Shown here piece after piece: positions 12,305 to 29,583 of a DNA stretch of 64,000 nucleotides. Origin of the DNA: Chromatiales bacterium (lineage in GTDB: Bacteria > Pseudomonadota > Gammaproteobacteria > JAGRCI01); NCBI GenBank assembly GCA_020445565.1, contig JAGRGI010000081.1:4412-68411 (forward strand), read 5' to 3'. Below the pieces are notes generated by a model, which saw only the letters and a program-made list of their open reading frames with translations, ran no database searches and was not told the DNA's origin. The position numbers and the translations under genes were made by a program. Within the stretch, counting starts at the first letter, position 1. Each line of letters starts with the position of its first letter.

Positions 12305-13378
12305 ATGAGCCTGCTTGACGTCAATGGCATCGAATGCCGTTACGGCGACACTGTGGTCGCCGCAGATGTCACCCTGCGCGTCAACAAGGGGGCCGTGGTA
12401 GGGCTGTTGGGGCCTAGCGGCTGCGGAAAGACCACTGTGCTGCGGGCCATTGCCGGTTTTCAACCCCTGCAACAGGGGGAGATTCGGCTCGACGGACGAG
12501 TGATTTCCTCCCCCGGATTCACCCTCGCCCCGGAGAAGCGCCATCTGGGCATGGTGTTTCAGGACTACTCCCTGTTCCCCCACATGGATGTCGGCGACAA
12601 CATCTGCTTCGGGCTCCGCGGCCTGGGCCGTGCCGAGCGCGGCCGGCTGGCCGAGGAGATGCTGGAAACGGTCGGCCTGGCAGGTTTTTGCAAACGCTTT
12701 CCTCATGAACTCTCCGGCGGGCAGCAACAGCGGGTCGCGCTGGCACGGGCGCTGGCGCCGAAGCCCGATCTGCTGCTGCTGGACGAGCCCTTTTCAAGCC
12801 TGGACGTGGAGCTGCGCGAGCATCTGAGTGTCGAGGTGCGCGAAATCCTCAAACACCGAGGCACAACGGCAATCCTGGTCACTCACGATCAGCATGAAGC
12901 CTTTGCGATGTGCGAAATGGTCGGCGTGATGAATCACGGCCGAATCCTGCAATGGGACACGCCCTACCAGCTCTATCACGAACCGAACCACCGCTTTGTG
13001 GCCGATTTCATCGGCCAGGGCGAATTCCTGACCGCGACGGTATTGGCAGACAATCGATTGGAAACCGAATTGGGCATCGTGCGCTGCCGCAGACAGGTCC
13101 AGTGGCCGGCGGGCACGCAGGTCGAGGTGCTCTTCCGTCCCGACGATATACTGCCGGAACCGGAAAGTCCGTTGCGCACAGTCGTGATCGACAAGGCATT
13201 CAAAGGGGCGGAGACCCTCTACACCCTACGCCTGGAAACCGGCGCCACGGTGGTCTCCCTGTTCCCCAGTCACCACAATCACGAGATTGGCGAGCGAGTA
13301 GGCATTCGCATCGATGCCGAGCATGTGGTCGCCTTTCCCATAGAGACGGCCGCAACGGCCCATACGGAAGCACTATGA
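12305..13378 (+). CDS. ABC transporter ATP-binding protein with a C-terminal TOBE domain (PotA/FbpC-like importer ATPase)
   Basis: Walker A GPSGCGKTT, signature LSGGQQQRVALARAL, Walker B LLLDEP. The gene ends overlapping the start of the next gene. Confidence 0.75.
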   Translation: MSLLDVNGIECRYGDTVVAADVTLRVNKGAVVGLLGPSGCGKTTVLRAIAGFQPLQQGEIRLDGRVISSPGFTLAPEKRHLGMVFQDYSLFPHMDVGDNICFGLRGLGRAERGRLAEEMLETVGLAGFCKRFPHELSGGQQQRVALARALAPKPDLLLLDEPFSSLDVELREHLSVEVREILKHRGTTAILVTHDQHEAFAMCEMVGVMNHGRILQWDTPYQLYHEPNHRFVADFIGQGEFLTATVLADNRLETELGIVRCRRQVQWPAGTQVEVLFRPDDILPEPESPLRTVVIDKAFKGAETLYTLRLETGATVVSLFPSHHNHEIGERVGIRIDAEHVVAFPIETAATAHTEAL

Positions 13379-14067
13379 AGGCAGGCATGGCGTTGCGACG
13401 CAGATTTCCTATTTTCATCCTGCTGATATTGCTGGGAGGCGGAAGCGCGTTCGGCGAAACACAATACGTGTCCGACGCCGTGAAAGTGACACTGCGTTCC
13501 GGGCCCAGCATCCAAAACAAGATTTTGCGCATGCTGCCGGTCGGCGCCCCGCTCAAGGTACTGGAGACAGACGAAAAGACGGGCTATTCGCGAGTACGTT
13601 TTGACGGCGATACCGTCGGCTGGATATTGACGAGGCAGCTTTCCCGTGAACCCAGTCCGCGCCAGCAGTTGGAAGAGACCCGGTCCCGTTTGTCGGCGGT
13701 CGAAACAAACAACGGCGCACTCGCCGAGGAACTGAAACAACTGCAAGAGCGTTTTACGAACACGGACGAACAACGCGCGAAGCTGCTGAACGACAACCGG
13801 CGGCTTGCAGAAGAACTCAAAGCACTTCAACAATCCGCAGCCAATACCCTGTTTACGGAGCAGGAAAATCTACGCTTGCAGAACAATGTTCAGGAACTGG
13901 AAAAACGCCTTTCAGATTTGCAGTTTCAATATGACGGCATTCAGCGGGAGAACGCCCGCGACTGGTTCATGGTGGGCGCGGGTGTGATTTTGCTGGGCAT
14001 ACTCGTGGGGCTCATCCTGCCACGAATGCGCTGGAAACGGCGCGGATCGAGCTGGGATACGCTTTGA
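13375..14067 (+). CDS. Bacterial SH3-domain protein (YgiM/TIGR04211-like): signal peptide, SH3, coiled coil, C-terminal TM
   Basis: Signal peptide, an SH3b-like segment (YVSDAVKVTLRSGPS...), a long coiled coil and a C-terminal TM helix. The ATG at 13375 lies inside the tracker's out-of-frame longer ORF. Confidence 0.65.
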   Translation: MKAGMALRRRFPIFILLILLGGGSAFGETQYVSDAVKVTLRSGPSIQNKILRMLPVGAPLKVLETDEKTGYSRVRFDGDTVGWILTRQLSREPSPRQQLEETRSRLSAVETNNGALAEELKQLQERFTNTDEQRAKLLNDNRRLAEELKALQQSAANTLFTEQENLRLQNNVQELEKRLSDLQFQYDGIQRENARDWFMVGAGVILLGILVGLILPRMRWKRRGSSWDTL

Positions 14068-18884: not shown

Positions 18885-19889
18885 CTATCGAAAATGCCAG
18901 TTGGCGCCGATTTCGTCGGCATACAGACGATTCTCGGCGATCTCGCGCAGGTACAACGATTCCATCAGTTGGGCGAAATTGCGGTAGCGGCGGAAGCCGT
19001 CGTACATGCCCTTGCTCAGCCACGCCTCCCACTCGCCGTGCTCATCCACCACCGCCGGGTTGAGCATCACGATGCCGCGCACGTCGCTGAACTCGCCGCA
19101 GATCACCAGGGCGCCGGGGATGTACTCGCGGCGCATGTCGGTGAGCGGGTCCTGGCTGGCGCTGTAGTTGAAGTAGCGCTCGTCCGGGACCGGGTCGTCG
19201 GGAACGAATTCACCAGCCATGTCCACCATCCACTCCTGGTACTCGGTGTTGCGCAAATAGTCGATGCGGTCGACCCAGGTTAGGTAGATGTCGCCCAGTA
19301 CCCAGCCGTTGGTCAGGCGCAGGAATTCCTTATACGACGGCGGCAGGGTCGCACCCAGGCGTTGCTCGGCGGCGCGGATCTGCTCATCGGTGGCCGGCGG
19401 GCGGCCGGAGGAGCTGTTGCGGATGATGTCGCCCCAGGAGAAGATGTCGACCAGGGTGTCGGGGCGTCGGCGTTTCATTGAGGCGAAATCTTCTCGGTAG
19501 AATTGCGTGAGCAACTCCGCAGCTTGCATGGCTAGGCGCCGGCCCTCCGGCGTGTTTCCGGGATACGGTATGCGGCCCCGATGAAGTTCTCGCGGCAAAT
19601 GCACGCCCGTTCGCTCTTCATATGCCGCGAGCTCCTCGTCCAGCGGGGTCACCATCTTGCCCTCCCAGAGCAAAATGGCGCGGGTAATCTCCAATAGTTC
19701 AAAGTCCCAGTCTTCAAGGAACTTCTTCCAACCTACTCTGGCAATGGAAACCGGTTCCGGGAGGTAAGCGGTCGCCTTCTGCATCCAGATGCGTCGGGCA
19801 GTGGGGTCTTCGGGGTTCATACAGGCCACCAGAGTAAATGTAAAGAATATGACGCGAAGCAATCGGAGTCGACAGATTGGCGTCGACAT
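18885..19889 (-). CDS. SUKH-1 (SMI1/KNR4) family immunity-like lipoprotein
   Basis: Internal ATG at 19889, 14 nt after the toxin stop, with lipoprotein signal MSTPICRLRLLRVIFFTFTLVAC (lipobox LVAC). C-terminal SUKH motifs ATDEQIRAAEQRLGATLPPSYKEFLRLTNGW and ...ALVICGEFSD. The tracker's longer ORF overlaps the upstream toxin gene in another frame. Confidence 0.65.
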   Translation of the reverse strand: MSTPICRLRLLRVIFFTFTLVACMNPEDPTARRIWMQKATAYLPEPVSIARVGWKKFLEDWDFELLEITRAILLWEGKMVTPLDEELAAYEERTGVHLPRELHRGRIPYPGNTPEGRRLAMQAAELLTQFYREDFASMKRRRPDTLVDIFSWGDIIRNSSSGRPPATDEQIRAAEQRLGATLPPSYKEFLRLTNGWVLGDIYLTWVDRIDYLRNTEYQEWMVDMAGEFVPDDPVPDERYFNYSASQDPLTDMRREYIPGALVICGEFSDVRGIVMLNPAVVDEHGEWEAWLSKGMYDGFRRYRNFAQLMESLYLREIAENRLYADEIGANWHFR

Positions 19890-19902
19890 GCCGGCCCCGT
19901 AC

Positions 19903-22900
19903 CTAACGCCTCCCATAGCAGACCTCCCCGCCGGGCAGTGCACCGTGGGTAACGGAACCCTCGGACAAATCCGTGCGAACCTCGTAGGGGTCGTTTGCAG
20001 AGATTCGACATTTGGCATAGAACTGCCGGAGGGTCCCGCCCTGGGCTTGGTTTTGACGGCGGGGCACCAGTCGCAGCGATACTCCGTCGGTGATGCCGAC
20101 CCCAGCCCCTTGGCGGGTGGAATAGAATGGATACTCGTCGCAATCGGGCTCGACATCATTCTTGTCCTTAAACTGGTCCCGATTGTTCCTGCTACACACA
20201 ATCTCCTTCCGATACCAAGTCCGATCCCCACCTGAGTCGTCCCCGTTGTCGACATTGGCCGTGATGGTCCCGATCGATGAGGTATAACCAAGGAACTCCA
20301 GCGTGCTGGGCGACCCACCGGCTTGGGCGTCCTGGACATGTGAGGTGATCTCGGTCATCGGCGTCAAACGGGTAGATTGTGAGGCCGACACGTAGACCTT
20401 GCAGTCGCCTTCGTCTGCCATGGCGGTGGCGGTACTCGCGGCGCCGAGGGGCAAGCTCCAGCGCCCGAGCTCGCGCAGAATCGGTAAAAAGAAACGGGCA
20501 AGGACGGCCAACGCGGGGGCAAGTGCGCCTCCCGCGGCACCTCCAGACGCCACTATTATGGCAAGAAGCACAATGGCGGCGATGATGGCCCACCACGGTA
20601 TCCGCACCCCGACCCGTTCTCCGTCTCCCGAATCGATAGAACAGGACGGCTGTTGCCCAAATGAAGGCGGTACCTCGAGCGGTCGCACAAAGCCGACGAA
20701 ATTGCCCATTCCCACGAGTGCCAACGACTTGTCCAATTCGCTCTGTGCGGCTCCGCCGTTGCTCCCGCCGCGAATGCGGTAGGCGCCCGCCCCGGTCTGC
20801 GGATCGATGAGCAAATAACCCTCGCCACGCCAGTCACCCGATTGGATCTGACCGGCACTCACCAGGGCCTGATGGCCGTTGGCGACGTGGAAACGCAGAT
20901 CCTCCCGTGTCTCGGGCGACAACGACAGCGTTGGGAGCACGCTTTCCAGGTTGTTTTCGGTCAGAGAGTGCAGGCGCTGCCCCTGCCGTTGGGCCAGGGC
21001 TAGGGCACTTACGGCGGAGACGCTGGTGGCAGGGTAGTCGGCGTTACCGATATATGCGACGGGTACCTCGTATTCCAGGGCCGACCCGATGGAGCCCAGG
21101 ATCTCGCGCAAGCGGGGCTCGTCCAAGTCGCCGCCGGCAAGCGGCACGACGGTTTCGCCCAGGTAGTCGATATCCACCGCCACACCACCCAAGTTCACGT
21201 TGCGCGGTGCGCCCAGAACGATCTCGGCATCCAGTTCGGTCGAGAAGGTGCCAAAAGACGGGTGGCGGTAGGTGACGCCCAGCCCCATCAAGGACAGGGT
21301 CTCCAGCGCTGCGTCCACATTCGCGAACCAGCTGCGGGCCATGCTGGGGAAAACGTTCTCTGGATCGTTGTACACGCTGTCGGTCAATTCCTGCGCGGGG
21401 ATGGAGCCGGGATTCACGGCGAGATACAGCCACTCGCCGGCATCGGGCTGGTTGACGGCCACTGCCTGGCCGCCGCCGAGTCGGTCGATGGTGGTCACGC
21501 TTACCAGAGCCTGGCCCAGGGTGTAGGGACCGGCACTGGCGACGACCTGGCTGTCTAGCCGCAGCTCGGCGATCAGCCGAATGCGGTGGCCGGGCAGGCG
21601 GCGGGGCAGATCTCGGAAGGTGGCCGTGGAATCGCTGGGATCGGGCAGTTGTTCCTCAATGAGCCGGCGATCGGCATCGCTCGCGGGGCGATAGCGCAAT
21701 TGCAACTGTCGCCCAACCAGTTCCGGGAGAGCGATCCGGTGGTACAGCTGGGGGATCTCGTGGGTGCGCTCGGCCTCGTTTCGATACAGGGCGAAGGAAA
21801 AGGCGATGCGGGCGCTGTCCGGCAGTTCAGAGGCCACGGCAAGGTCTTGATGGCCGGAGCCCATGAGGCCGGATGGGAGGACGGGAAAGTCCATACGTGC
21901 GATGGCGCGGCCTCGCCAGGATTGCTCCTCGTCGAAAACGGCGTCCGCGAGGGAGTCCTCCCAACGGGGTAGGAGACTGGCGAAGTCCACCTGTTCCAAA
22001 CCTTCAATGGCCCCGTCAGCCGGATTGATACTCAAACCGGACAACGCCGTGCGTATCTCCTCGCGCACGGACTCAACCGCCGGATTCTGGAGGTCTGGTG
22101 CGGCAGAGTACTCGTATCGCTTCAGGCTGGCGTCAAGCGGCAGCCAAGTGTCCCCCTCCCTTTGAACGGCGCCTCGTGAGGGAAAGTAGTCGATCCACGC
22201 CTCCACCCAGACATGTTCGAGACGGATGGCGACGATCCGCCCGCCACTCGCCAAACCGGAGGCCGGGATGCCGCCTTGGCCGAGCACAGCCAAAACCTGC
22301 TCAGGGCGTTCGACCCCACCTAGCCAGTTCATGGCCAGATCCACCGGCAGATCGATGGTGCCGAATCGGTAGCGGGCCTGGATGCCAGCGACCCGGTACA
22401 AAGCAACCAGCAGACTGCTGATGTCGAAGGCGTTGCCTTGGCCCGTCTGGAGCGTGTAGTCGGCACCCTGGATGGAACCCCAGGTGGGCACATAGTCGAT
22501 CTGGTTGCGTACCCAGTTGTAGATCGCCACTGGCTGGTTGCCGAGTTGCTCGGCAAGTTGACGTATGGCCGGAGTAAAACGCACCTCGGTGCTCTCCCCG
22601 AGATAGTCCTCACCGCCAATCGCCTGTTTTTCAGGTGCGGAAGTCGGTGGCAACATCGCATTCCGGTACACCTTCAGTTCGGTAGCCGAGTTGGCCGGTT
22701 TTCGTGCTTCGGGGACGATCTGACCGAAGGCAAGCGGCGGCTTACCCGCCATGGGGATAGCGGGAATCGGGACCTCGGCCTGAGCCACCGATTTCTCATT
22801 CGCGGCATGCACCGGGCCGAGGAGTGCGCAGTTGAATATCTCCAGGGTCAGCAGAGCGACGAACTTGAAAAACCGGCGGTTCGGATTCAACCAGGCCACG

Positions 22901-22977
22901 CATCGCCAAGCCGATGTCCGTTCGGTGTCTACGGCTGCGGCGTGGGTGGCTCGATGACGATAGGTCGACGTATTCAT
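19903..22977 (-). CDS. Polymorphic-toxin-like secreted protein: signal peptide, transglutaminase-like domain lacking the catalytic Cys, long central region, one TM helix, and a C-terminal NucA/NucB-type DNase domain
   Basis: Transglutaminase-like core GQGNAFDISSLLVALYRVAGIQARYRFG...EHVWVEAWIDY...WLPLDAS, with no Cys in the catalytic motif. TM helix WWAIIAAIVLLAIIVASGG. C-terminal DCDEYPFYSTRQGAGV...LRLVPRRQNQAQGG resembles the NucB motifs DRDEWPMA..GGAG..VRYVTPSDNRGAGS. The ATG overlaps the stop of the upstream giant gene (ATGA). Confidence 0.65.
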   Translation of the reverse strand: MNTSTYRHRATHAAAVDTERTSAWRCVAWLNPNRRFFKFVALLTLEIFNCALLGPVHAANEKSVAQAEVPIPAIPMAGKPPLAFGQIVPEARKPANSATELKVYRNAMLPPTSAPEKQAIGGEDYLGESTEVRFTPAIRQLAEQLGNQPVAIYNWVRNQIDYVPTWGSIQGADYTLQTGQGNAFDISSLLVALYRVAGIQARYRFGTIDLPVDLAMNWLGGVERPEQVLAVLGQGGIPASGLASGGRIVAIRLEHVWVEAWIDYFPSRGAVQREGDTWLPLDASLKRYEYSAAPDLQNPAVESVREEIRTALSGLSINPADGAIEGLEQVDFASLLPRWEDSLADAVFDEEQSWRGRAIARMDFPVLPSGLMGSGHQDLAVASELPDSARIAFSFALYRNEAERTHEIPQLYHRIALPELVGRQLQLRYRPASDADRRLIEEQLPDPSDSTATFRDLPRRLPGHRIRLIAELRLDSQVVASAGPYTLGQALVSVTTIDRLGGGQAVAVNQPDAGEWLYLAVNPGSIPAQELTDSVYNDPENVFPSMARSWFANVDAALETLSLMGLGVTYRHPSFGTFSTELDAEIVLGAPRNVNLGGVAVDIDYLGETVVPLAGGDLDEPRLREILGSIGSALEYEVPVAYIGNADYPATSVSAVSALALAQRQGQRLHSLTENNLESVLPTLSLSPETREDLRFHVANGHQALVSAGQIQSGDWRGEGYLLIDPQTGAGAYRIRGGSNGGAAQSELDKSLALVGMGNFVGFVRPLEVPPSFGQQPSCSIDSGDGERVGVRIPWWAIIAAIVLLAIIVASGGAAGGALAPALAVLARFFLPILRELGRWSLPLGAASTATAMADEGDCKVYVSASQSTRLTPMTEITSHVQDAQAGGSPSTLEFLGYTSSIGTITANVDNGDDSGGDRTWYRKEIVCSRNNRDQFKDKNDVEPDCDEYPFYSTRQGAGVGITDGVSLRLVPRRQNQAQGGTLRQFYAKCRISANDPYEVRTDLSEGSVTHGALPGGEVCYGRR

Positions 22978-25900
22978 CGACGGGGGCCTCCTTGCGGATG
23001 GGTAACGGTTCGGTGTCGCAGGCCGATCCAGACGGTCATCAGGATCAGCAACGCCAGGTTGGCGGAGTTCAACAGCGGCACGGCGAGAGGTTCGACTATG
23101 CCTTGGGGCAGGACAACCTGGAAATAGGCATAGGACAGGGTCTGCCAGTCTTCGTCGGCCTTGCGCAGACGACGCGGGTCCGGTGCGGGGCGTGCTTGCA
23201 GCAGACAGGCGTAGTTGCCGGGGGGCAGTTCGGCGGTGTCGATGGCTTCCTGGTGTTCTGGGGCGTCGCCGTTGAGGGTGTCCAGGTTGCGGATTCGATC
23301 GAGCACTACCTCGCCGGTCTCCAGGTTGACGAGCCGCTGACGGATTTCCAGGTTGGTCAGGGTTCCGCCGAGAGTGCTGAGTCGATCCATGCAGGCGTTC
23401 GCCTCGCCGCGGACGACCTGGGGCTTTTCGGTCTCGATCAGGCCGTTCAGGCTGCGATTGAAGGCTTGGGCGACGGTAAAGCCGGCCTCGTCGGTGGCAA
23501 GCAGGCCGAACCGGATATCCACGGCCTGGGCATGAACCTGGTAGGCGCCGGGTTCGGCTCCCGAAAGGGGTAGCGTCAGGCCATGTGGGGTTTGTTGGCC
23601 TGGGGCGAGTTGGCCAATGGGAATGCCTTGCCGCAGGATATCCGTACCCCGGGGATCGACTACCTGGACCTGCAAGGTAATGTCGGAAAACAGTGCGTCC
23701 GTACTGAGATTTCGCAACAGGTTGTCGATACGCACCAGGTCGTTGGCGTTGTACTCGGCCCGGTCGGTGGTGGTGCGCAGACTGGCTTGCCGGTCGGCGA
23801 GCAGGGTCGAGACGATTTGGAAGGGGGCGAGGTCTTCGTCGATCGGTTCGCCACGGTCGTCATACAGCAGACCGTGCAGTTGGTAGTCTCCGGTCAGGAT
23901 GCCGTTGGCGGGCCAGTCGACGCCGATGGGATGGCTGGTCCCCACGCTAAGATTTTCCAGATCCACGTCGTCGAAGCGGGTCACGACTTGGCCGTTGCTG
24001 TCTTCCACTTGCAGTACGGCGGTAAAGGTTCCGCTAAGTGCGCCGGTATTTAAGATGAGGGCACTGAGGTGAGCGGTGGCGTCCGAGGTGTAAGTCGGGG
24101 CATCGGTGGCGACGGTGAGGCTCCCGACCGTGGCGAGCGTCGCCAGGGGGATGGCCATTTGGTTGTTGACCTCGTTGCATTCGTCGATGGCATTGGCGGC
24201 ATCGACGACGACGTAGAGCTCGTTCTGGTTGAACAGTTCTACGGCATCGAGCGAAAGGTCACGATATTCGCCCACCGCCAGGGGCGCGACGATTTGGTCG
24301 CCGAGCAGGATTCCGCCGACGGCCGGATCGCCTTGATAAAAGGTCAGGCGGGCCTCGCCGGTGGGGGTAAGGCCGCCGTTGCCCACGCGTACCGTCAGAC
24401 GGGGACGCGCTTGCGAGGTCTGATCGAAGCGCAACAGGGATACGCTCAGATCCGGCAGGGCCAGTGGATCGCGGCCGGGGAAGGCGTTGAGGCGATAGGT
24501 ATTGTGGACCAGCCAGGAGGGTTGTTCGTGCGTCGGGATGGTGCCGTCGTCGTTGATGTTGGTGATGTGGTAGCTGTGCTGGTTCCAGATGGCGCGGGTG
24601 GGTGCCCAGTCGTCGTTGGCGGACTCGAAGGCATAGACGCCGGAGTCCACCGCCGGGTTGCCGTTGAAGATTCGTGCATCGGAACAGACCAGCAGTTCGG
24701 CATGGCCATCATTGTCGATGTCGGCGACGACCGGCATCTCCGTGCCGGTTCCAGAGAGCACGGGTCGAGCGTGCAGCACCTGACCATCGCTACCACGGTA
24801 GATACGCAGGAACCGCTCGTCGCGATACACGACTTCTGCGGCTCCGTCCCCGTCGAAGTCGAATGACGTCGAGCCAGTAACGGTAGAACTGTAGTCCTGT
24901 GTCGGCGACGACCAAAGAATGGAGCCGTCGGTGTCGAATACTGTGTAGCTGCTGGCCCCCGCGACAGCGATCTCTGGCCTGCCGTCACCATCAAAATCCG
25001 CAATGGTTGGCGCACCGCCATATCCCCCCCCGGAAGCACAACCCTGCCGCTGATTGCATGCCAAAGGCTCGCACTTGATCCGTCGTGCTCCAACAAATAT
25101 ACGTAGCCACCGCCAACGACCACAATTTCGGCAAAATCATCCTCGTCGAAATTGCCGACTGCGACGAAACCTTCCGGGACACCACTCCCCTCCAACACCA
25201 ATCCGTGACGGTCGTATGAATACACACTGCTCCCGGCAACGATTTCCGGGACGCCATCGAGATCGACATCCGCCACAGCAGAAACAACGGTATACAGGTT
25301 GAATCCCGAGTGACCTCCGAGGGCTCTGCCATCGGCGAGAACGTGTCCCTGGGCATCGTAAACGACCGCACCGACCACGATTTCCGGGACGCCATCGGCG
25401 TCCAGGTCGGCAATGACAATCGATCCGCCGGAGTCAGAGCGACCGGGCAAAGTCAGCTCGTCGCTCGCCCATTTGAATGTCAGGTCATTCTCGAAGGCGA
25501 GAAGCTGTTTGCCATTTTGGGAAGCGCCGATCACTTCCGGCACGCCATCGCCATCGATGTCGCCAATGGCAAGTTCGGTGATTGCCCCAACCAATTGATT
25601 GGGTGGGCTGGTGTACAGGGTTCTCCCGTCGTCTCCGCTTATCGCATAGATCTGACCGCCGTTGAATTGTCCATTTGGTACGGTGGGAAACACAATGTCG
25701 GGGACATCGCGAACACCGATGTGCCCATCGCCGTTGTCGTCGGTAAGATTTGCGACTAGGGGCGTGGAGATGACATCAATCCGCTCGTTCTCAAGGGCAT
25801 GAAATTTTACGACCGGATCGAATGTTCCAGGCGGCGATACTGGCAACCGGCACAGAGCAGACGAACTACCGACGTTATTCCCCTCCTCCGCCTCATCGAT

Positions 25901-28900
25901 CCGCAAGTCGCTGTCGACCATGGCAAAGATGGGCGCATCACGGAAACGGGTCGTGCCGTTGACGAGGATGTCGATGGTCAGCGACGCGCCACCGGCCAAC
26001 CCATTCGGCAGGGTTCGGGCGGCCAGGGCATTATCGGTGCCGGGATCGTATCGGCCGTTGCCGTTGAGGTCTTCGAACAGGCTGACACGCGCCGGCAGTT
26101 CGGCCGCGGCCAGGGCGAGGTTTTCCACACGGACTTGGACGATACCGCTGATGTCAAGCGTGCGTGGATCGCTTTGCAGGCCTGCGGTATCGATGGCGGA
26201 AACCGTCAAGTCTGGTTTGGGGCGGTAGGAGCCGATGGAGACATGAACGGTGTCATTATCCACGCAACCCCGGTCGTCGATCACAAACAGGGTGACGTCC
26301 CGTTCCTGCGCGGAGGTGAACCGGTGCTGCGCGCTCGCCCCGGTGATGTCGATCTCGTTGTCGCCGTCCAAGTCCCAGGCGTAGGTGACGATGTTGCCCT
26401 GGGAGGCGCTAGCGTTGAATTGGATAGCGGTTTGCGCATCGGCAACGATATCCTGCCCTGCGTCAGCGGTTGGCTTTTCTGCGCAACGCATTCCGCCAAC
26501 GGCGTCAATTTCAGCATCGGCGGACTGCCAACCTTCGAGCGGACTATGGTCGTCTACGTCGCTCCAACTGGTACGGTCTTGGGTGTCAAAAATCGAGATG
26601 GAATTATCCGCCTTCAGGCGAACATACCGATACCCCGTGCCACGAAAGGCGTACAGTCCGGCGTAGTCATCGATGTTTGCCGTTTCGCCGCATAGGGCAC
26701 GATTGTCCGACCAGCCTTGAACGTAAATGCTGACCAAAGTCGCCTGCGTCCAACCGTCCGGGAAAATCGATTCCGGATCGTCAGATCCCCAAATGGTGTA
26801 CTCAACACCTTCCTGCGGATAGGGGGCATGATCTACGAAGGGAAATACCGTAACGGCAAAGAATCGCTCACCCATATCCCAGATAACGTCGTTGTCGTCG
26901 GATGTCGATTCGAGCGGATCAAAAGGATCATAGCCAGCGGCCATGGACCGAAAATCAAGACCGTTCGCTGCATACGCAATATCCTGCAAACTATTCTCCC
27001 TGATGGTGTCAAAAGCAAAACCGCACCCCATTGGCGATTGAGCTGTCCAGGTATGAGGGCGTCCTCCCGAAACATGGCGTCCCAGGATATAGTTGTCCGG
27101 CACCAACGCATCGCGCGTCAGACCATGGAGTGTCTGCACGTCCGTGACGACATAGGTCGTCGCACTGTTCTGCAGAACCTCAACGGTAATACTTTCCTGC
27201 GCAATTCCTCCGTAGGCGTCGACCACAGTCACAGCGAAGTCATGGTTACCCACCTGCGCCAAGGTCGGCAGCCAACGAATCTGCCCGGTGTTGGAATCGA
27301 TCTGCATCCCTGCCGGGGCCTCGGCCAAACCGAAACGCAACGCGTCGCCCTCCGGGTCGCTGGCGGCTACGGTATTTAGGTAGGTCTCCCCCACCCGAGC
27401 CTGAGTCGGGGCGGCGGACAGAATCGTCGGCGGTTGATTCGAGGACAGCGGGGCGAAGGCAGCCATGGCCAGGTCCGTCAGGTCGACGACACTCCCCGCC
27501 GGGGCTTGCACGGACAGCGAAACCGGGTGGTAGCCGTTCAGGTTGAACGTAAAATCGAGGTCGCCGGAGGTGATCCCGCCGATCTCGAAGGTGCCGGCGG
27601 CGTCGGATAGGGCGGATGGCCGACCGTCGATGCTGACGGTGACATCCGCCAGGGGGAACCGCGTAACGCTATCGACGACACTGCCGTACACCCGAACCGC
27701 GTCCGCAACCTGCTCAAGACGGGGCGCGAATACCAACACCTCGCCCGCCGCCAGGGTGGCATGACCGGAGGCACTGTGATAACCGTTTCGTTCGGCGACG
27801 ATGTCGATGCTGCCGGTGGACAGGTTGTCGAATGTGAAGCGGCCGTGGGAGTCGGTGAGCACACGGGTTCGGCCGACGATACGGATGTCCACATTGGGCA
27901 AGGGTGCCCCCGAGTGACTGTCGGTGACGGTTCCATACACCCGGGCGGTGGTGACGTCGTGCGTCGGCGTGAGCCGCAGCTCGCCCAGATCGAGCACCTG
28001 TCCGGCGAGCAGGTCCACGGCGGTGGACAGCAGGCCATAGCCGACCCGCTGTACCGTGAGCCGATATTGACCCTCATCGAGGTTCGAAACGACGAACCCG
28101 CCATCGGGATCCGTACCAAGACCCAGATTCTGCGGCCCGGTCAGTTGGAGAGATACCCCGGCCAGGGGCTGGCCAGTAGAGCCGTCGCTCACCTGGCCCC
28201 GCAGCATTCCCTGTTGTGGGTCGATTGCGGGCGAGGCCACATCGGCCAGCGCTCGCAGTGCCAGGGCGGTCTGGTACGCGTCACCGTTCCAACTGCCGTC
28301 GACGTTCTGGGCGGCGCGCAAGCGTTCGATAGCGGGTTCCAACGTTGTCCGATCCGACAAATGGACGGCGAGGAAGAGCAGTGCCAAAGCGGTTTCGTGG
28401 GTCTCGGCCCAGACACCTTGGGCGTTGCGTCGGGCCAGCAGGAAGCCCTCGGCGGCTTGCAGAGCGCTGCGAAGTTCGTAAAGCGGACGGAACCACCACA
28501 AGATACGTGCCACCAGGGCGGTAACGTATATCGAGGAGGCATTGCCGCTTTCGCCCCAGCCCCCATCATCGCGCTGGACGTTCTGTAGATAACCGACGGC
28601 ATAGGCCGCCGCCTCGGTGTGCGTATAGCCGGCTGCGGCCAGACTCTCCAAAGCAAAGGCGGTATCCAGGACGCTGCTGTAGTAGCCGACCGCAAAGCCG
28701 AAACCGCCGTCGACATTTTGGCGACTCAGCAGTTGTGAAACCCACTCAGAAGAGTCCAGGCCGGTTTCCGCGAGCGCAATAATCTGGCGGGACAGGTATT
28801 CAGTGCTCAAGGCATCGGTATCGGCGCCGAGCAGAAAATCGCGGGCTGCCATGCTGGCAGGATCCGCGCCCGACTCCAGCAGCACCAGGGCACGCAGGGA

Positions 28901-29110
28901 CTCTGCCGTAGACTGAGTGGCGGTGGCGACATCGTCGGTCGTTGTGAGACTGCCATCGGGCGAGGAACGGCTGCCCAACCAGGCGATGCCCTCCGCAGTA
29001 CCTGCCCATCCAGGCATCACAGGCAAGCAAACCAATAGACAAAAAAGCAGGGACGCAATCGCGGACGGTTTTCGGCATGGCGGCCGAATCCATGAGTTAC
29101 GGGGTTCCAT
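22974..29110 (-). pseudogene. Giant secreted multidomain surface/adhesin-like protein (~2,040 aa if fused), split into two overlapping ORFs (24446..29542 and 22974..25064) by a frameshift at a homopolymeric G tract
   Basis: N-terminal signal peptide. Prenyltransferase/terpenoid-cyclase-like repeats (QNVDGGFGF, QRDDGGWGE, QNVDGSWNG). Three carboxypeptidase-regulatory-like domains. A cadherin-like 'putative Ig' domain, a PKD domain and two CARDB domains. At least 10 FG-GAP/VCBS repeats (DxDGDGxxE) spanning the frameshift. A C-terminal hydrophobic helix plus basic tail. Likely ATG starts at 29110 or 29125 (after MEPRNSW.../signal); the tracker's 1698-aa ORF begins further upstream at 29542. Confidence 0.6.
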
Positions 29111-29407
29111 AGAGCAGGATTCCATTCGGTTGAAACGACTAATGTCGCGAAGTACACCGCTTTCCCCGTCTGCGGTCAAGACCATTGCGTGTACGAAAAT
29201 TCTTACAAACTCAACATCTTGGGAGAGATAATCTTCGATAGTCAAAACACTGGCGACACAGACGAGGCAGTGCAATTCAAGGAGAATGCCGCCTTGAACG
29301 CGGTGCTTCTTGGCAGGCAATCGAGGTTTGCGTAACGGTGAGATTTTGACTGAAACCCCGGGCCTGCGTTGGCCATGTTGATGTGAGGCCAAGGGCCTGC
29401 ATTGACT

Positions 29408-29471
29408 TCGGCGCACATCCGGGCTTTCACCTCCCTGTGGCTGGATTCCGCCGCTCCCTGGCGGAATGACG
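29408..29471. repeat. Conserved ~64-nt element, copy 2 (hairpin ATTCCGCC-N7-GGCGGAAT with SD and ATG on the minus strand). It lies ~290-360 bp upstream of the giant surface-protein gene and ~110 bp upstream of divergent hupE.
   Basis: About 58 of 64 nt are identical to 2985..3048. The stem is conserved while the loop differs, which is a compensatory pattern. On the minus strand, GGGAGGTGA then an ATG open a 58-codon ORF that is not conserved beyond MCAE. Confidence 0.6.
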
Positions 29472-29583
29472 GTACCGCCGACCATCGTCTGCATAGGAAG
29501 TGCCGCCCCCCACCAGCCTTGCCGCATTGCGGGAATGGGCATAGGATTGCCGAACTAAACTCAGCATCTCCGGAGGAAATGCC

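Follow-up and report, generated by a model that had tools for sequence, protein, structure and literature searches.

A NucB-type DNase at the end of a pseudo-transglutaminase carrier with a coupled SUKH gene: a candidate Sec-dependent toxin module in a Chromatiales bacterium

The reverse strand of a 64,000-nucleotide stretch of DNA from a Chromatiales bacterium (contig JAGRGI010000081.1 of assembly GCA_020445565.1; the whole stretch is called the window below) encodes a 1024-residue protein, here termed the carrier, which ends in a DNase domain of the NucA/NucB type and whose gene is followed directly by one of the SUKH immunity family. The preferred reading, to which a probability of about 0.55 is given, is that these two genes specify a Sec-dependent, membrane-tethered DNase toxin and its immunity protein, and that the carrier's own terminal hydrophobic hairpin exports the DNase to the periplasmic side of the membrane. 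The DNase and the SUKH protein are both of known kinds; what is new is the undescribed carrier, the unusual export arrangement and the unusual location of the immunity protein. The carrier is MCB1876441.1 in NCBI ('hypothetical protein KDH88_10735', from a Chromatiales bacterium metagenome-assembled genome, or MAG), and the identical 1024-residue protein is present in three other independent public assemblies plus one NCBI MAG. Because that protein belongs to a Chromatiales MAG, the host is a diderm gammaproteobacterium.

An earlier note on this DNA, made by eye, had placed a NucA/NucB-like DNase at the C-terminus and had named a profile search and a structure prediction as ways of checking it; both bear it out. 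Pfam recognizes two domains in the carrier, Transglut_core and DNase_NucA_NucB (PF14040), the latter at residues 918-1000 (E 2.3e-14, 54.1 bits against a gathering score of 23.8). The essential residues of NucB are His53, Asp93 and Glu94 (of the DRDE motif), Ser108, and Asn117 (of the DNRG motif), H53, D93, E94 and N117 having been validated by mutation (PMC5758888). Their counterparts in the carrier, matched by motif, order and fold and not by residue-level superposition, are H880, D947, E948, S967 and N976. The DE(W/Y)P and DNRG-like motifs that had been picked out by eye are real (D947-E948 in an invariant CDEYPF, and N976). An exhaustive search of 1.8 billion representatives with a profile hidden Markov model (HMM) of the domain yielded 2097 relatives at E<=1e-3, and a 51-sequence alignment drawn from these, in which D947 and E948 are conserved throughout, H880 and S967 in 50/51 and N976 in 42/51, was the input for an AlphaFold2 (AF2) model of residues 854-1024. 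The model has a predicted local distance difference test (pLDDT) score of 87.4 and a predicted template-modelling score (pTM) of 0.83. In a Foldseek comparison with the PDB, three B. licheniformis NucB entries are its sole matches near E 1e-3 (probability 1.00; template-modelling scores, normalized to NucB, of 0.72-0.75), the next match standing at E>1. The predicted fold is a nuclease fold and the acidic motif is in place: by HMM, catalytic residues and fold, the end of the carrier is a predicted DNase of the NucA/NucB type. Profile and fold comparison were needed for this assignment because sequence searches against PDB chains, made with the single domain and with a 12-sequence profile, missed NucB and returned only a chance match (E 1.7); similarity to the solved NucB chains lies below phmmer and hmmsearch detection. 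A word-indexed homologue search with the C-terminal 185 residues returned only one fragment, 100% identical.

Bacillus NucB and NucA (PF14040; PDB 5OMT, 6EJS, 9FJ7) form part of the Glu-type subgroup within the beta-beta-alpha-metal (His-Me finger) non-specific endonucleases. The domain at hand departs from NucB in its length of 170 residues, with insertions, and in its disulfide pattern (Cys66-Cys100 in NucB; PMC5758888), and in being the C-terminal module of a 1024-residue membrane protein in a gammaproteobacterium. The interval originally pointed to, 19906..20230, is that of residues ~917-1024, and the peptide quoted from it, which opens TWYRKEIV, begins at residue 920; the estimate of ~110 residues for the nuclease was too short. 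Besides the catalytic residues the domain contains Cys859 and two further pairs, Cys928/Cys946 and Cys990/Cys1020, whose members co-occur across the DNase family, C928 with C946 and C990 with C1020, as expected for an extracytoplasmic protein. C859 is found in 20 of the 51 aligned sequences, mainly in carriers of the transglutaminase type.

Where the domain occurs elsewhere is also informative. It lies <=40 residues from the C-terminus in 143 of the 146 top representative hits, about half of the representative hits are short (<300 residues, some of them gene fragments), and, of the five long scanned hits with a match to any Pfam family, four are RHS proteins that have the DNase at their end. 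A literature search for PF14040/DNase_NucA_NucB as a toxin found nothing relevant; the 'Tox-NucA' of PMC3113570 and PMC3482391 is the Serratia/Anabaena family, not PF14040.

The gene that follows the DNase supplies the other half of the argument. Its 343-residue product, a length also given by an independent gene caller, matches SMI1_KNR4 (PF09346) with E 1.2e-13 and 52 bits against a gathering score of 25.4. The gene has a GGAGG ribosome-binding site 5' of its ATG at 19916 and is predicted, from its overlap with the end of the carrier gene, to be translationally coupled to it. SUKH proteins are a classic immunity family for nuclease toxins (PMC3113570; PMC3482391). Five homologous loci (handles of the form L001 are used where they must be told apart) also have a NucA/NucB-bearing carrier with the downstream gene in view. 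That gene belongs to SMI1_KNR4 in four of them (L001, L002, L007, L008); in the fifth, L009, it is a DUF1963-family gene (13322..14002, a weak match) with no SUKH gene present, which would mean that the type of immunity can change under a constant toxin. Downstream of the toxin-less relatives of the carrier no gene of SUKH or DUF1963 type was seen. Since a SUKH gene is coupled downstream here and recurs after the toxin in four loci, the pair makes up a predicted toxin-immunity module, in which the SUKH protein would neutralize the DNase. That the domain is a toxin, as first proposed from the letters, gains from this coupling and recurrence and from the DNase-terminated RHS toxins.

Immunity proteins of polymorphic toxins are typically cytoplasmic, one lipoprotein family, Imm65, having been noted (PMC3482391). 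Read from ATG 19916, however, the SUKH protein begins with MGGVRYGAGMSTPICRLRLLRVIFFTFTLVAC/M (the slash marks the putative cut), in which a hydrophobic core lies between a basic n-region and the lipobox LVAC. L007 holds the only close homologue of this SUKH protein, beside a toxin 53% identical. In L007 an open frame extends upstream of the called start to an ATG that overlaps the toxin gene, with 32 residues to the lipobox Cys, LSAC (…FVRFSSIIGLFVWVLLSAC/S), and the similarity of the two proteins stays in register past the lipobox. The L007 frame keeps the same 32-residue length, the lipobox and the toxin overlap, which is good evidence from sequence comparison for a genuine lipoprotein form in this lineage. 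In both proteins a Met follows the lipobox within 1-7 residues, and one may speculate that lipoprotein and cytoplasmic forms could both be translated. The notion that a lipoprotein signal is general to these SUKH proteins was considered and rejected: those of L001 and L002 clearly have none and that of L008 is ambiguous. Periplasmic immunity to a DNase is hard to rationalize unless the envelope is where the DNase is stored or acts, or the immunity protein intercepts incoming toxin before import.

How the DNase is mounted is best seen from the hydrophobicity of the carrier. Kyte-Doolittle analysis (19-residue means) picks out only two hydrophobic regions, residues 36-58 and 788-836, the latter with means up to 2.6; the N-terminal one is common to most homologues of the carrier. 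The earlier note had reported a single hydrophobic segment lying about 100 residues before the nuclease. The segment is there, reading WWAIIAAIVLL from residue 795 (nt 20593-20595), but it comprises two helices, not one, and the DNase domain begins right after it. The AF2 model that includes it (residues 751-1024, from 12 sequences) was used for the two-helix prediction alone, not for claims about fold.

A pair of Cys residues brackets this hairpin in 22 of 22 transglutaminase-NucA/NucB proteins, 61-80 residues apart, with the DNase starting just after the second; in the carrier the pair is C779 and C859, the latter being the first Cys of the DNase domain. The same architecture is present where there is no toxin. 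In 47 of the 102 toxin-less members one Cys lies <=10 residues from the end and its partner ~55 residues upstream, on either side of a two-helix hairpin (the tail is free of Cys in 35 of the 102 and holds exactly two in 44), and the Cys frequency is 1.1% in the tails as against 0.1% in the protein body. Because a hydrophobic region closes the majority of the ~100 homologues without a toxin, the hairpin predates the toxin and is independent of it: it is, by this comparison, the carrier family's ancestral C-terminal membrane anchor and not a toxin-specific device. Read most simply, a membrane-anchored protein acquired the DNase at its ancestral C-terminus, and both ends of the hairpin would face one oxidizing compartment. 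Nor would a hydrophobic element ahead of a NucA/NucB domain be as unusual as had been suggested. NucB, which is secreted, carries a signal peptide at its N-terminus, and B. subtilis NucA has an anchor in that position.

The details of the hairpin bear on which compartment that is. Summed over the 22 DNase carriers, the inter-helix loop has a net positive charge (K+R 24, D+E 5), as the positive-inside rule would have it for a cytoplasmic loop. Of these 22 proteins, 21 have a small-x-small motif (AQA, ANA, AMA, AHA and the like) no more than 12 residues ahead of the second Cys; in the few toxin-less tails that were read the Cys follows the helix immediately, with no such spacer. A basic n-region and an A-x-A c-region give helix 2 the look of an internal signal peptide, and we infer that the hairpin lies N-out/C-out and that helix 2 acts as an export signal placing the DNase in the periplasm.

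A side observation concerns the RHS toxins. In many that end in NucA/NucB (P0150-P0166 and similar), 60-90 residues separate the end of the RHS core (DPxG...) from the domain, and these linkers contain a helix of moderate hydrophobicity and, close before the domain, a Cys; this hydrophobic/Cys feature may be one that RHS toxins and transglutaminase carriers share.

The remainder of the carrier is a conserved body with a transglutaminase domain at its head. At the expected site of the catalytic Cys stands GNAFD (residues 181-185; 22423..22437, reverse strand), while His256 (EHVWVE) and Asp282 (PLDAS) of the triad are kept. Asn replaces the Cys in all 118 aligned members of the family, with the triad His and Asp retained, so the domain is, to judge from its sequence, a pseudo-enzyme; the invariance of the Asn suggests a conserved non-catalytic role or altered chemistry. 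No RHS_repeat match was obtained with Pfam at E up to 0.1, and NCBIfam gave no match for the protein. The carrier gene has an AAGGAGG ribosome-binding site 8-9 nucleotides 5' of its ATG at 22977, and this ATG overlaps the stop codon of the gene upstream. The coordinates of these features are collected in Table 1.

Table 1. Features of the DNase-SUKH locus (positions in the window; a slash marks a putative cleavage point)
Feature	Coordinates	Strand	Basis or remark
Third gene of the strand run, ~430 residues	17504..18814	-	N-terminal hydrophobic helix, weak TPR-like signals; possibly part of the module
SUKH-1/SMI1_KNR4 immunity gene, 343 residues	18885..19916	-	Pfam SMI1_KNR4; start overlaps the toxin stop by 14 nt
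SUKH lipoprotein signal peptide, 32 residues (putative)	19821..19916	-	R-rich n-region, LLRVIFFTFT h-region, lipobox LVAC
Carrier/toxin gene, 1024 residues	19903..22977	-	Open reading frame
NucB-fold DNase domain, residues 855-1024	19906..20415	-	Pfam, catalytic residues, fold
TATAMA, residues 849-854, small-x-small, putative signal peptidase I site (AMA/DEGDC)	20416..20433	-	Motif; cleavage predicted from it
Hydrophobic helix 2, residues 818-834, proposed internal export signal	20476..20526	-	Kyte-Doolittle 1.5-1.8; AF2 helix at residues 820-838
Hydrophobic helix 1, residues 795-812	20542..20595	-	Kyte-Doolittle up to 2.6; AF2 helix at residues 795-811, low confidence
Cys779, conserved, before helix 1	20641..20643	-	Invariant in alignment A1
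GAGAYRIRGGSNGG motif, residues 729-742, last conserved block of the carrier body; variable tail after it	20752..20793	-	Homology endpoint
Transglut_core lacking its nucleophile, residues 142-283	22129..22554	-	Pfam, E 4e-17
N-terminal signal-like hydrophobic region, residues 36-58, FFKFVALLTLEIFNCALLGPVHA/A	22804..22872	-	Kyte-Doolittle peak 1.7; putative cleavage
Giant surface-protein gene, upstream of the toxin	22974..29131	-	Two overlapping open reading frames, 24446..29542 and 22974..25064

A full-length search found 425 homologues of the carrier, nearly all of ~1000 residues, in Alcanivorax, Thalassolituus, Oceanobacter, Geotalea, Undibacterium, Nitrospirota and Desulfobacterota; a literature search for the family found no paper and no studied member. 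Similarity to the toxin-less relatives stops at about residue 740-770, right after a conserved GAGAYxIxGGxNGG block, and a motif of the GAGAYRIRGGSNGG type is visible in all the homologue tails printed. In most homologues 100-130 variable, strongly hydrophobic residues then follow and usually close the protein. The members that bear NucA/NucB are P0001-P0013 plus six further 50%-identity clusters only, the tail being spread over at least ten such clusters, and a genome scan for relatives returned identities of <=54%, none of them with the DNase. A ranking of the family by similarity of the N-terminal part shows the DNase carriers concentrated near the query yet interleaved with toxin-less members, and places four of them far from it; this interleaving suggests repeated gain or loss of the DNase within the family. 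One member with a different tail, P0057 (locus L006, 10001..14108), carries a PT-TG pre-toxin domain in place of the hydrophobic hairpin, followed by an unassigned tail of ~140 residues, and its gene is followed by two HEAT_2 repeat genes, which are candidates for immunity; the other tails scanned have no Pfam domain.

The gene upstream of the carrier encodes a giant protein in which Pfam finds a squalene-cyclase-like toroid, CarboxypepD_reg repeats, He_PIG/PKD, FG-GAP, CARDB and MG2 domains. Its frame changes at ~24.95-25.06 kb, within the 24446..25064 overlap, where ...VVLPGGD continues as ...GGGYGGAPTIADFDGDG in another frame; its homologues are single open reading frames of 2150-2900 residues, and the change may come from faulty assembly, mark a pseudogene or be a genuine frameshift. 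A homologous giant gene adjoins the transglutaminase gene in L001, L002, L003/L004, L005, L008 and L009, and wherever there is enough flank one or two genes for giant exported proteins do so, with the sole exception of L006, which has no adjoining giant gene. The homologous proteins display a squalene-cyclase-like toroid and CarboxypepD_reg, FG-GAP, CARDB, PKD, NIDO or IgGFc-binding domains. The last 35 residues of the giant protein (22977..23081, reverse strand), VPLLNSANLALLILMTVWIGLRHRTVTHPQGGPRR, run from a short motif through a hydrophobic helix to a basic cluster, in the manner of sorting signals of the IPTL/PEP-CTERM type. A conserved sorting signal in this tail (VPLLNSANLALLILMTVWIGLRHR) was nevertheless rejected: NCBIfam gave no match and the tail is missing from six homologous giant proteins.

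These observations can be put together in a composite picture of the preferred reading, that of a Sec-dependent, membrane-tethered toxin. The carrier would be a Sec-exported envelope protein with a large periplasmic body, made up of the pseudo-transglutaminase and ~550 further conserved residues, and the C-proximal two-helix hairpin would anchor this body in the inner membrane, N-out/C-out. Fused directly after the hairpin, the beta-beta-alpha-metal DNase, catalytically intact by sequence, would be carried over the inner membrane by helix 2, which, with the positive loop before it and A-x-A after it, could serve as an internal signal peptide. Signal peptidase I may cut after Ala854, and a Cys779-Cys859 disulfide would then tether the cleaved DNase to the carrier until reduction. 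The co-translated SUKH protein would be the cognate inhibitor, a periplasmic lipoprotein in this lineage and cytoplasmic in others, and the DNase/SUKH pair would serve as a toxin-immunity module of the kind known from Sec-dependent polymorphic toxins, displayed jointly with the upstream giant surface protein.

A good deal weighs against this picture. The periplasm offers a DNase no substrate, and nothing in the way of secretion or delivery machinery is evident by which it could reach another cell: no marker of type V, type VI or type VII secretion systems or of PVC (Photorhabdus virulence cassette), and no orphan toxin/immunity cassette, was found in the toxin or its neighbours, Sec-type export alone being implied. 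Tail polymorphism is modest, since nearly all toxin-bearing members share one DNase, and most members of the family carry no toxin at all. On the side of topology, the AF2 model with the hairpin is of low confidence (pLDDT 55), the charge bias on either side of the hairpin is weak, and a 14-residue insertion specific to the query protein, RELGRWSLPLGAAS (residues 835-848), stands between helix 2 and TATAMA/DEGDC, which is unfavourable for signal peptidase I. As to immunity, NCBI annotates a 311-residue SUKH protein starting at Met33, directly after the lipobox Cys; the lipoprotein start has two sequences behind it, the search for SUKH homologues having given one further full-length relative; and the SUKH proteins of L001 and L002 lack a signal peptide, so the location of immunity varies by lineage.

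The main rival is that the DNase is an envelope or extracellular nuclease with no antagonistic role, employed in scavenging extracellular or incoming DNA, in remodelling of the biofilm matrix or in processing DNA at the envelope as B. subtilis NucA does with Nin, the SUKH protein being a safety inhibitor that only shields the producer from mislocalized enzyme. The fold and active site are after all those of NucB, a secreted, matrix-degrading nuclease; the short proteins that make up about half of the representative hits are what stand-alone secreted nucleases would give, though some are fragments; the locus has no delivery apparatus; a periplasmic lipoprotein inhibitor suits the regulation of an envelope enzyme better than the protection of a chromosome; and the giant adhesin-like partner suggests matrix or surface biology. 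Against all this, SUKH is characteristic of immunity to nuclease toxins (PMC3113570; PMC3482391), the same DNase domain ends RHS toxins, a member of the carrier family has the polymorphic-toxin marker PT-TG at the same position, and the tight one-to-one coupling of toxin and immunity genes recurs in diverged loci. An envelope nuclease without antagonistic use is a serious possibility but falls well short of being probable.

Two other explanations turn on what the hydrophobic segment does. The one that builds on the earlier note, that it is a pre-toxin or translocation element that inserts into the membrane of the target cell and carries the DNase into its cytoplasm, draws on the Gly/Ala-rich composition of the hairpin, on the moderately hydrophobic linker and Cys that many RHS-type NucA/NucB toxins share before the domain, and on the plain necessity that a nuclease toxin somehow cross the target's inner membrane. 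It is hard to square with the hydrophobic end of most of the ~100 toxin-less homologues and with the Cys-bracketed hairpin in nearly half of the 102, and if signal peptidase cuts at A-x-A the hairpin would remain with the producer. Pfam, NCBIfam and PADLOC turned up none of the known partners of transmembrane effectors, such as PAAR or an Eag-type chaperone. A hairpin that has evolved for translocation is unlikely on this evidence, which neither supports nor excludes some role of the hairpin in crossing the target-cell membrane. The other explanation supposes an odd number of membrane spans, so that the DNase sits in the producer's own cytoplasm, held by SUKH, until a periplasmic signal sensed by the transglutaminase body or the giant protein sets off a suicide or abortive-infection response. 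The cytoplasmic SUKH proteins of L001 and L002 would suit such an arrangement, as would the linkage of large sensor-like surface proteins and the presence of a PP2C-kinase gene in two loci. It is the least probable of the readings and a very doubtful one: the Cys pairs that bracket the hairpin and those within the domain argue for an oxidizing compartment, the net-positive loop, the A-x-A motif and the lipoprotein SUKH of this lineage all point the other way, and PADLOC gives no match for the toxin.

Comparison with known systems places the proposed tethered DNase toxin among, and somewhat apart from, the polymorphic toxins, with which it shares the position of the toxin domain, at the very end of a large exported protein, and an immunity gene directly downstream. 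One likeness is to the Sec-dependent inactive-transglutaminase toxins (PMC3482391), which have a signal peptide, then a transglutaminase missing a residue of the catalytic triad, with the toxin at the extreme C-terminus and the immunity gene immediately downstream. There, however, RHS follows the transglutaminase, whereas here a conserved non-RHS body ends in the membrane hairpin; most members of the present family are toxin-less, and a giant FG-GAP/CARDB/CarboxypepD_reg gene is linked. Inactive transglutaminases at the N-termini of RHS toxins have been proposed to be peptide-binding anchors (PMC3482391). The RHS NucA/NucB toxins have the same DNase at the extreme C-terminus, often after a Cys and a moderately hydrophobic linker, but their carrier is the RHS shell, and in the linkers printed no Cys-bracketed membrane hairpin is seen. 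Neisseria MafB, with its lipoprotein MafA, offers a parallel of another kind, namely a Sec-exported toxin with a conserved N-terminal region and an adjoining conserved, non-polymorphic envelope partner (PMC3482391), which has been proposed to hold MafB at the surface (PMC3482391). No sequence relationship exists between the two, the partner here is of >2000 residues and not a small lipoprotein, and the toxin itself would be membrane-anchored. The prePAAR effectors (PMC3113570) have two transmembrane segments before PAAR; here the hydrophobic region is also present in toxin-less homologues, and no PAAR or chaperone domain accompanies it. The immunity gene is like other SUKH (SMI1/KNR4) genes (PMC3113570) in scoring above the gathering threshold and in directly following a nuclease toxin gene; unlike typical cytoplasmic immunity proteins (PMC3482391), it has a lipoprotein signal peptide, here and in L007. 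The inhibitor also sets the pair apart from NucA: it is SUKH, not Nin.

Some further features of the neighbourhood and of the homologous loci may be recorded. The third gene of the strand run, beyond SUKH, has only sub-threshold TPR matches and none in NCBIfam or PADLOC, and the sequence of L007 stops too soon for a comparison; PADLOC likewise has no match for the toxin or the giant protein, and a weak partial one for SUKH. A scan of 17-30.5 kb for promoters and terminators gave counts at or below those expected from shuffling. Two unrelated loci have a gene for a PP2C phosphatase/Ser-Thr kinase fusion immediately downstream of the transglutaminase module, on the opposite strand (L001 14471..16195; L003 13952..15658), one of them with a weak TCAD9 match; none was seen in the window. 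Far from the module, at 52000..58000 of the window, guanine-plus-cytosine (GC) content falls from ~0.61 to 0.45-0.52 and GC skew is strongly negative. Among its genes are those for two family-2 glycosyltransferases and for a TPR-like protein, and the interval is probably a horizontally acquired island for polysaccharide synthesis.

What the finding would mean depends on how much of the picture holds. In its fullest form, the internal-signal export, the signal peptidase I cut, the Cys779-Cys859 tether, the giant protein as contact device and the lipoprotein SUKH neutralizing in the periplasm would together be a hitherto undescribed way of mounting a toxin of polymorphic type; that whole is put forward tentatively, and rather doubtfully. 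If true, it would be a new Sec-dependent system of contact-dependent antagonism, and it would provide the first functional handle on a widespread pair of pseudo-transglutaminase and giant proteins in Gammaproteobacteria, Nitrospirota and Desulfobacterota. Three leads follow from the parts: a topology for the whole family in which both ends of the hairpin lie outside, stapled by the Cys pair; a possible internal-signal-peptide route for the export of a C-terminal toxin; and a nuclease immunity protein moved to the periplasm as a lipoprotein, against the usual cytoplasmic rule. The practical consequence is modest, NCBI labelling the carrier 'hypothetical' and annotating the immunity gene without its signal peptide. 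If the DNase is a weapon, the giant protein and the pseudo-transglutaminase may be the apparatus of its presentation and of contact; if it is not, the locus would hold an envelope nuclease and its inhibitor tied to the biology of the surface or the matrix.

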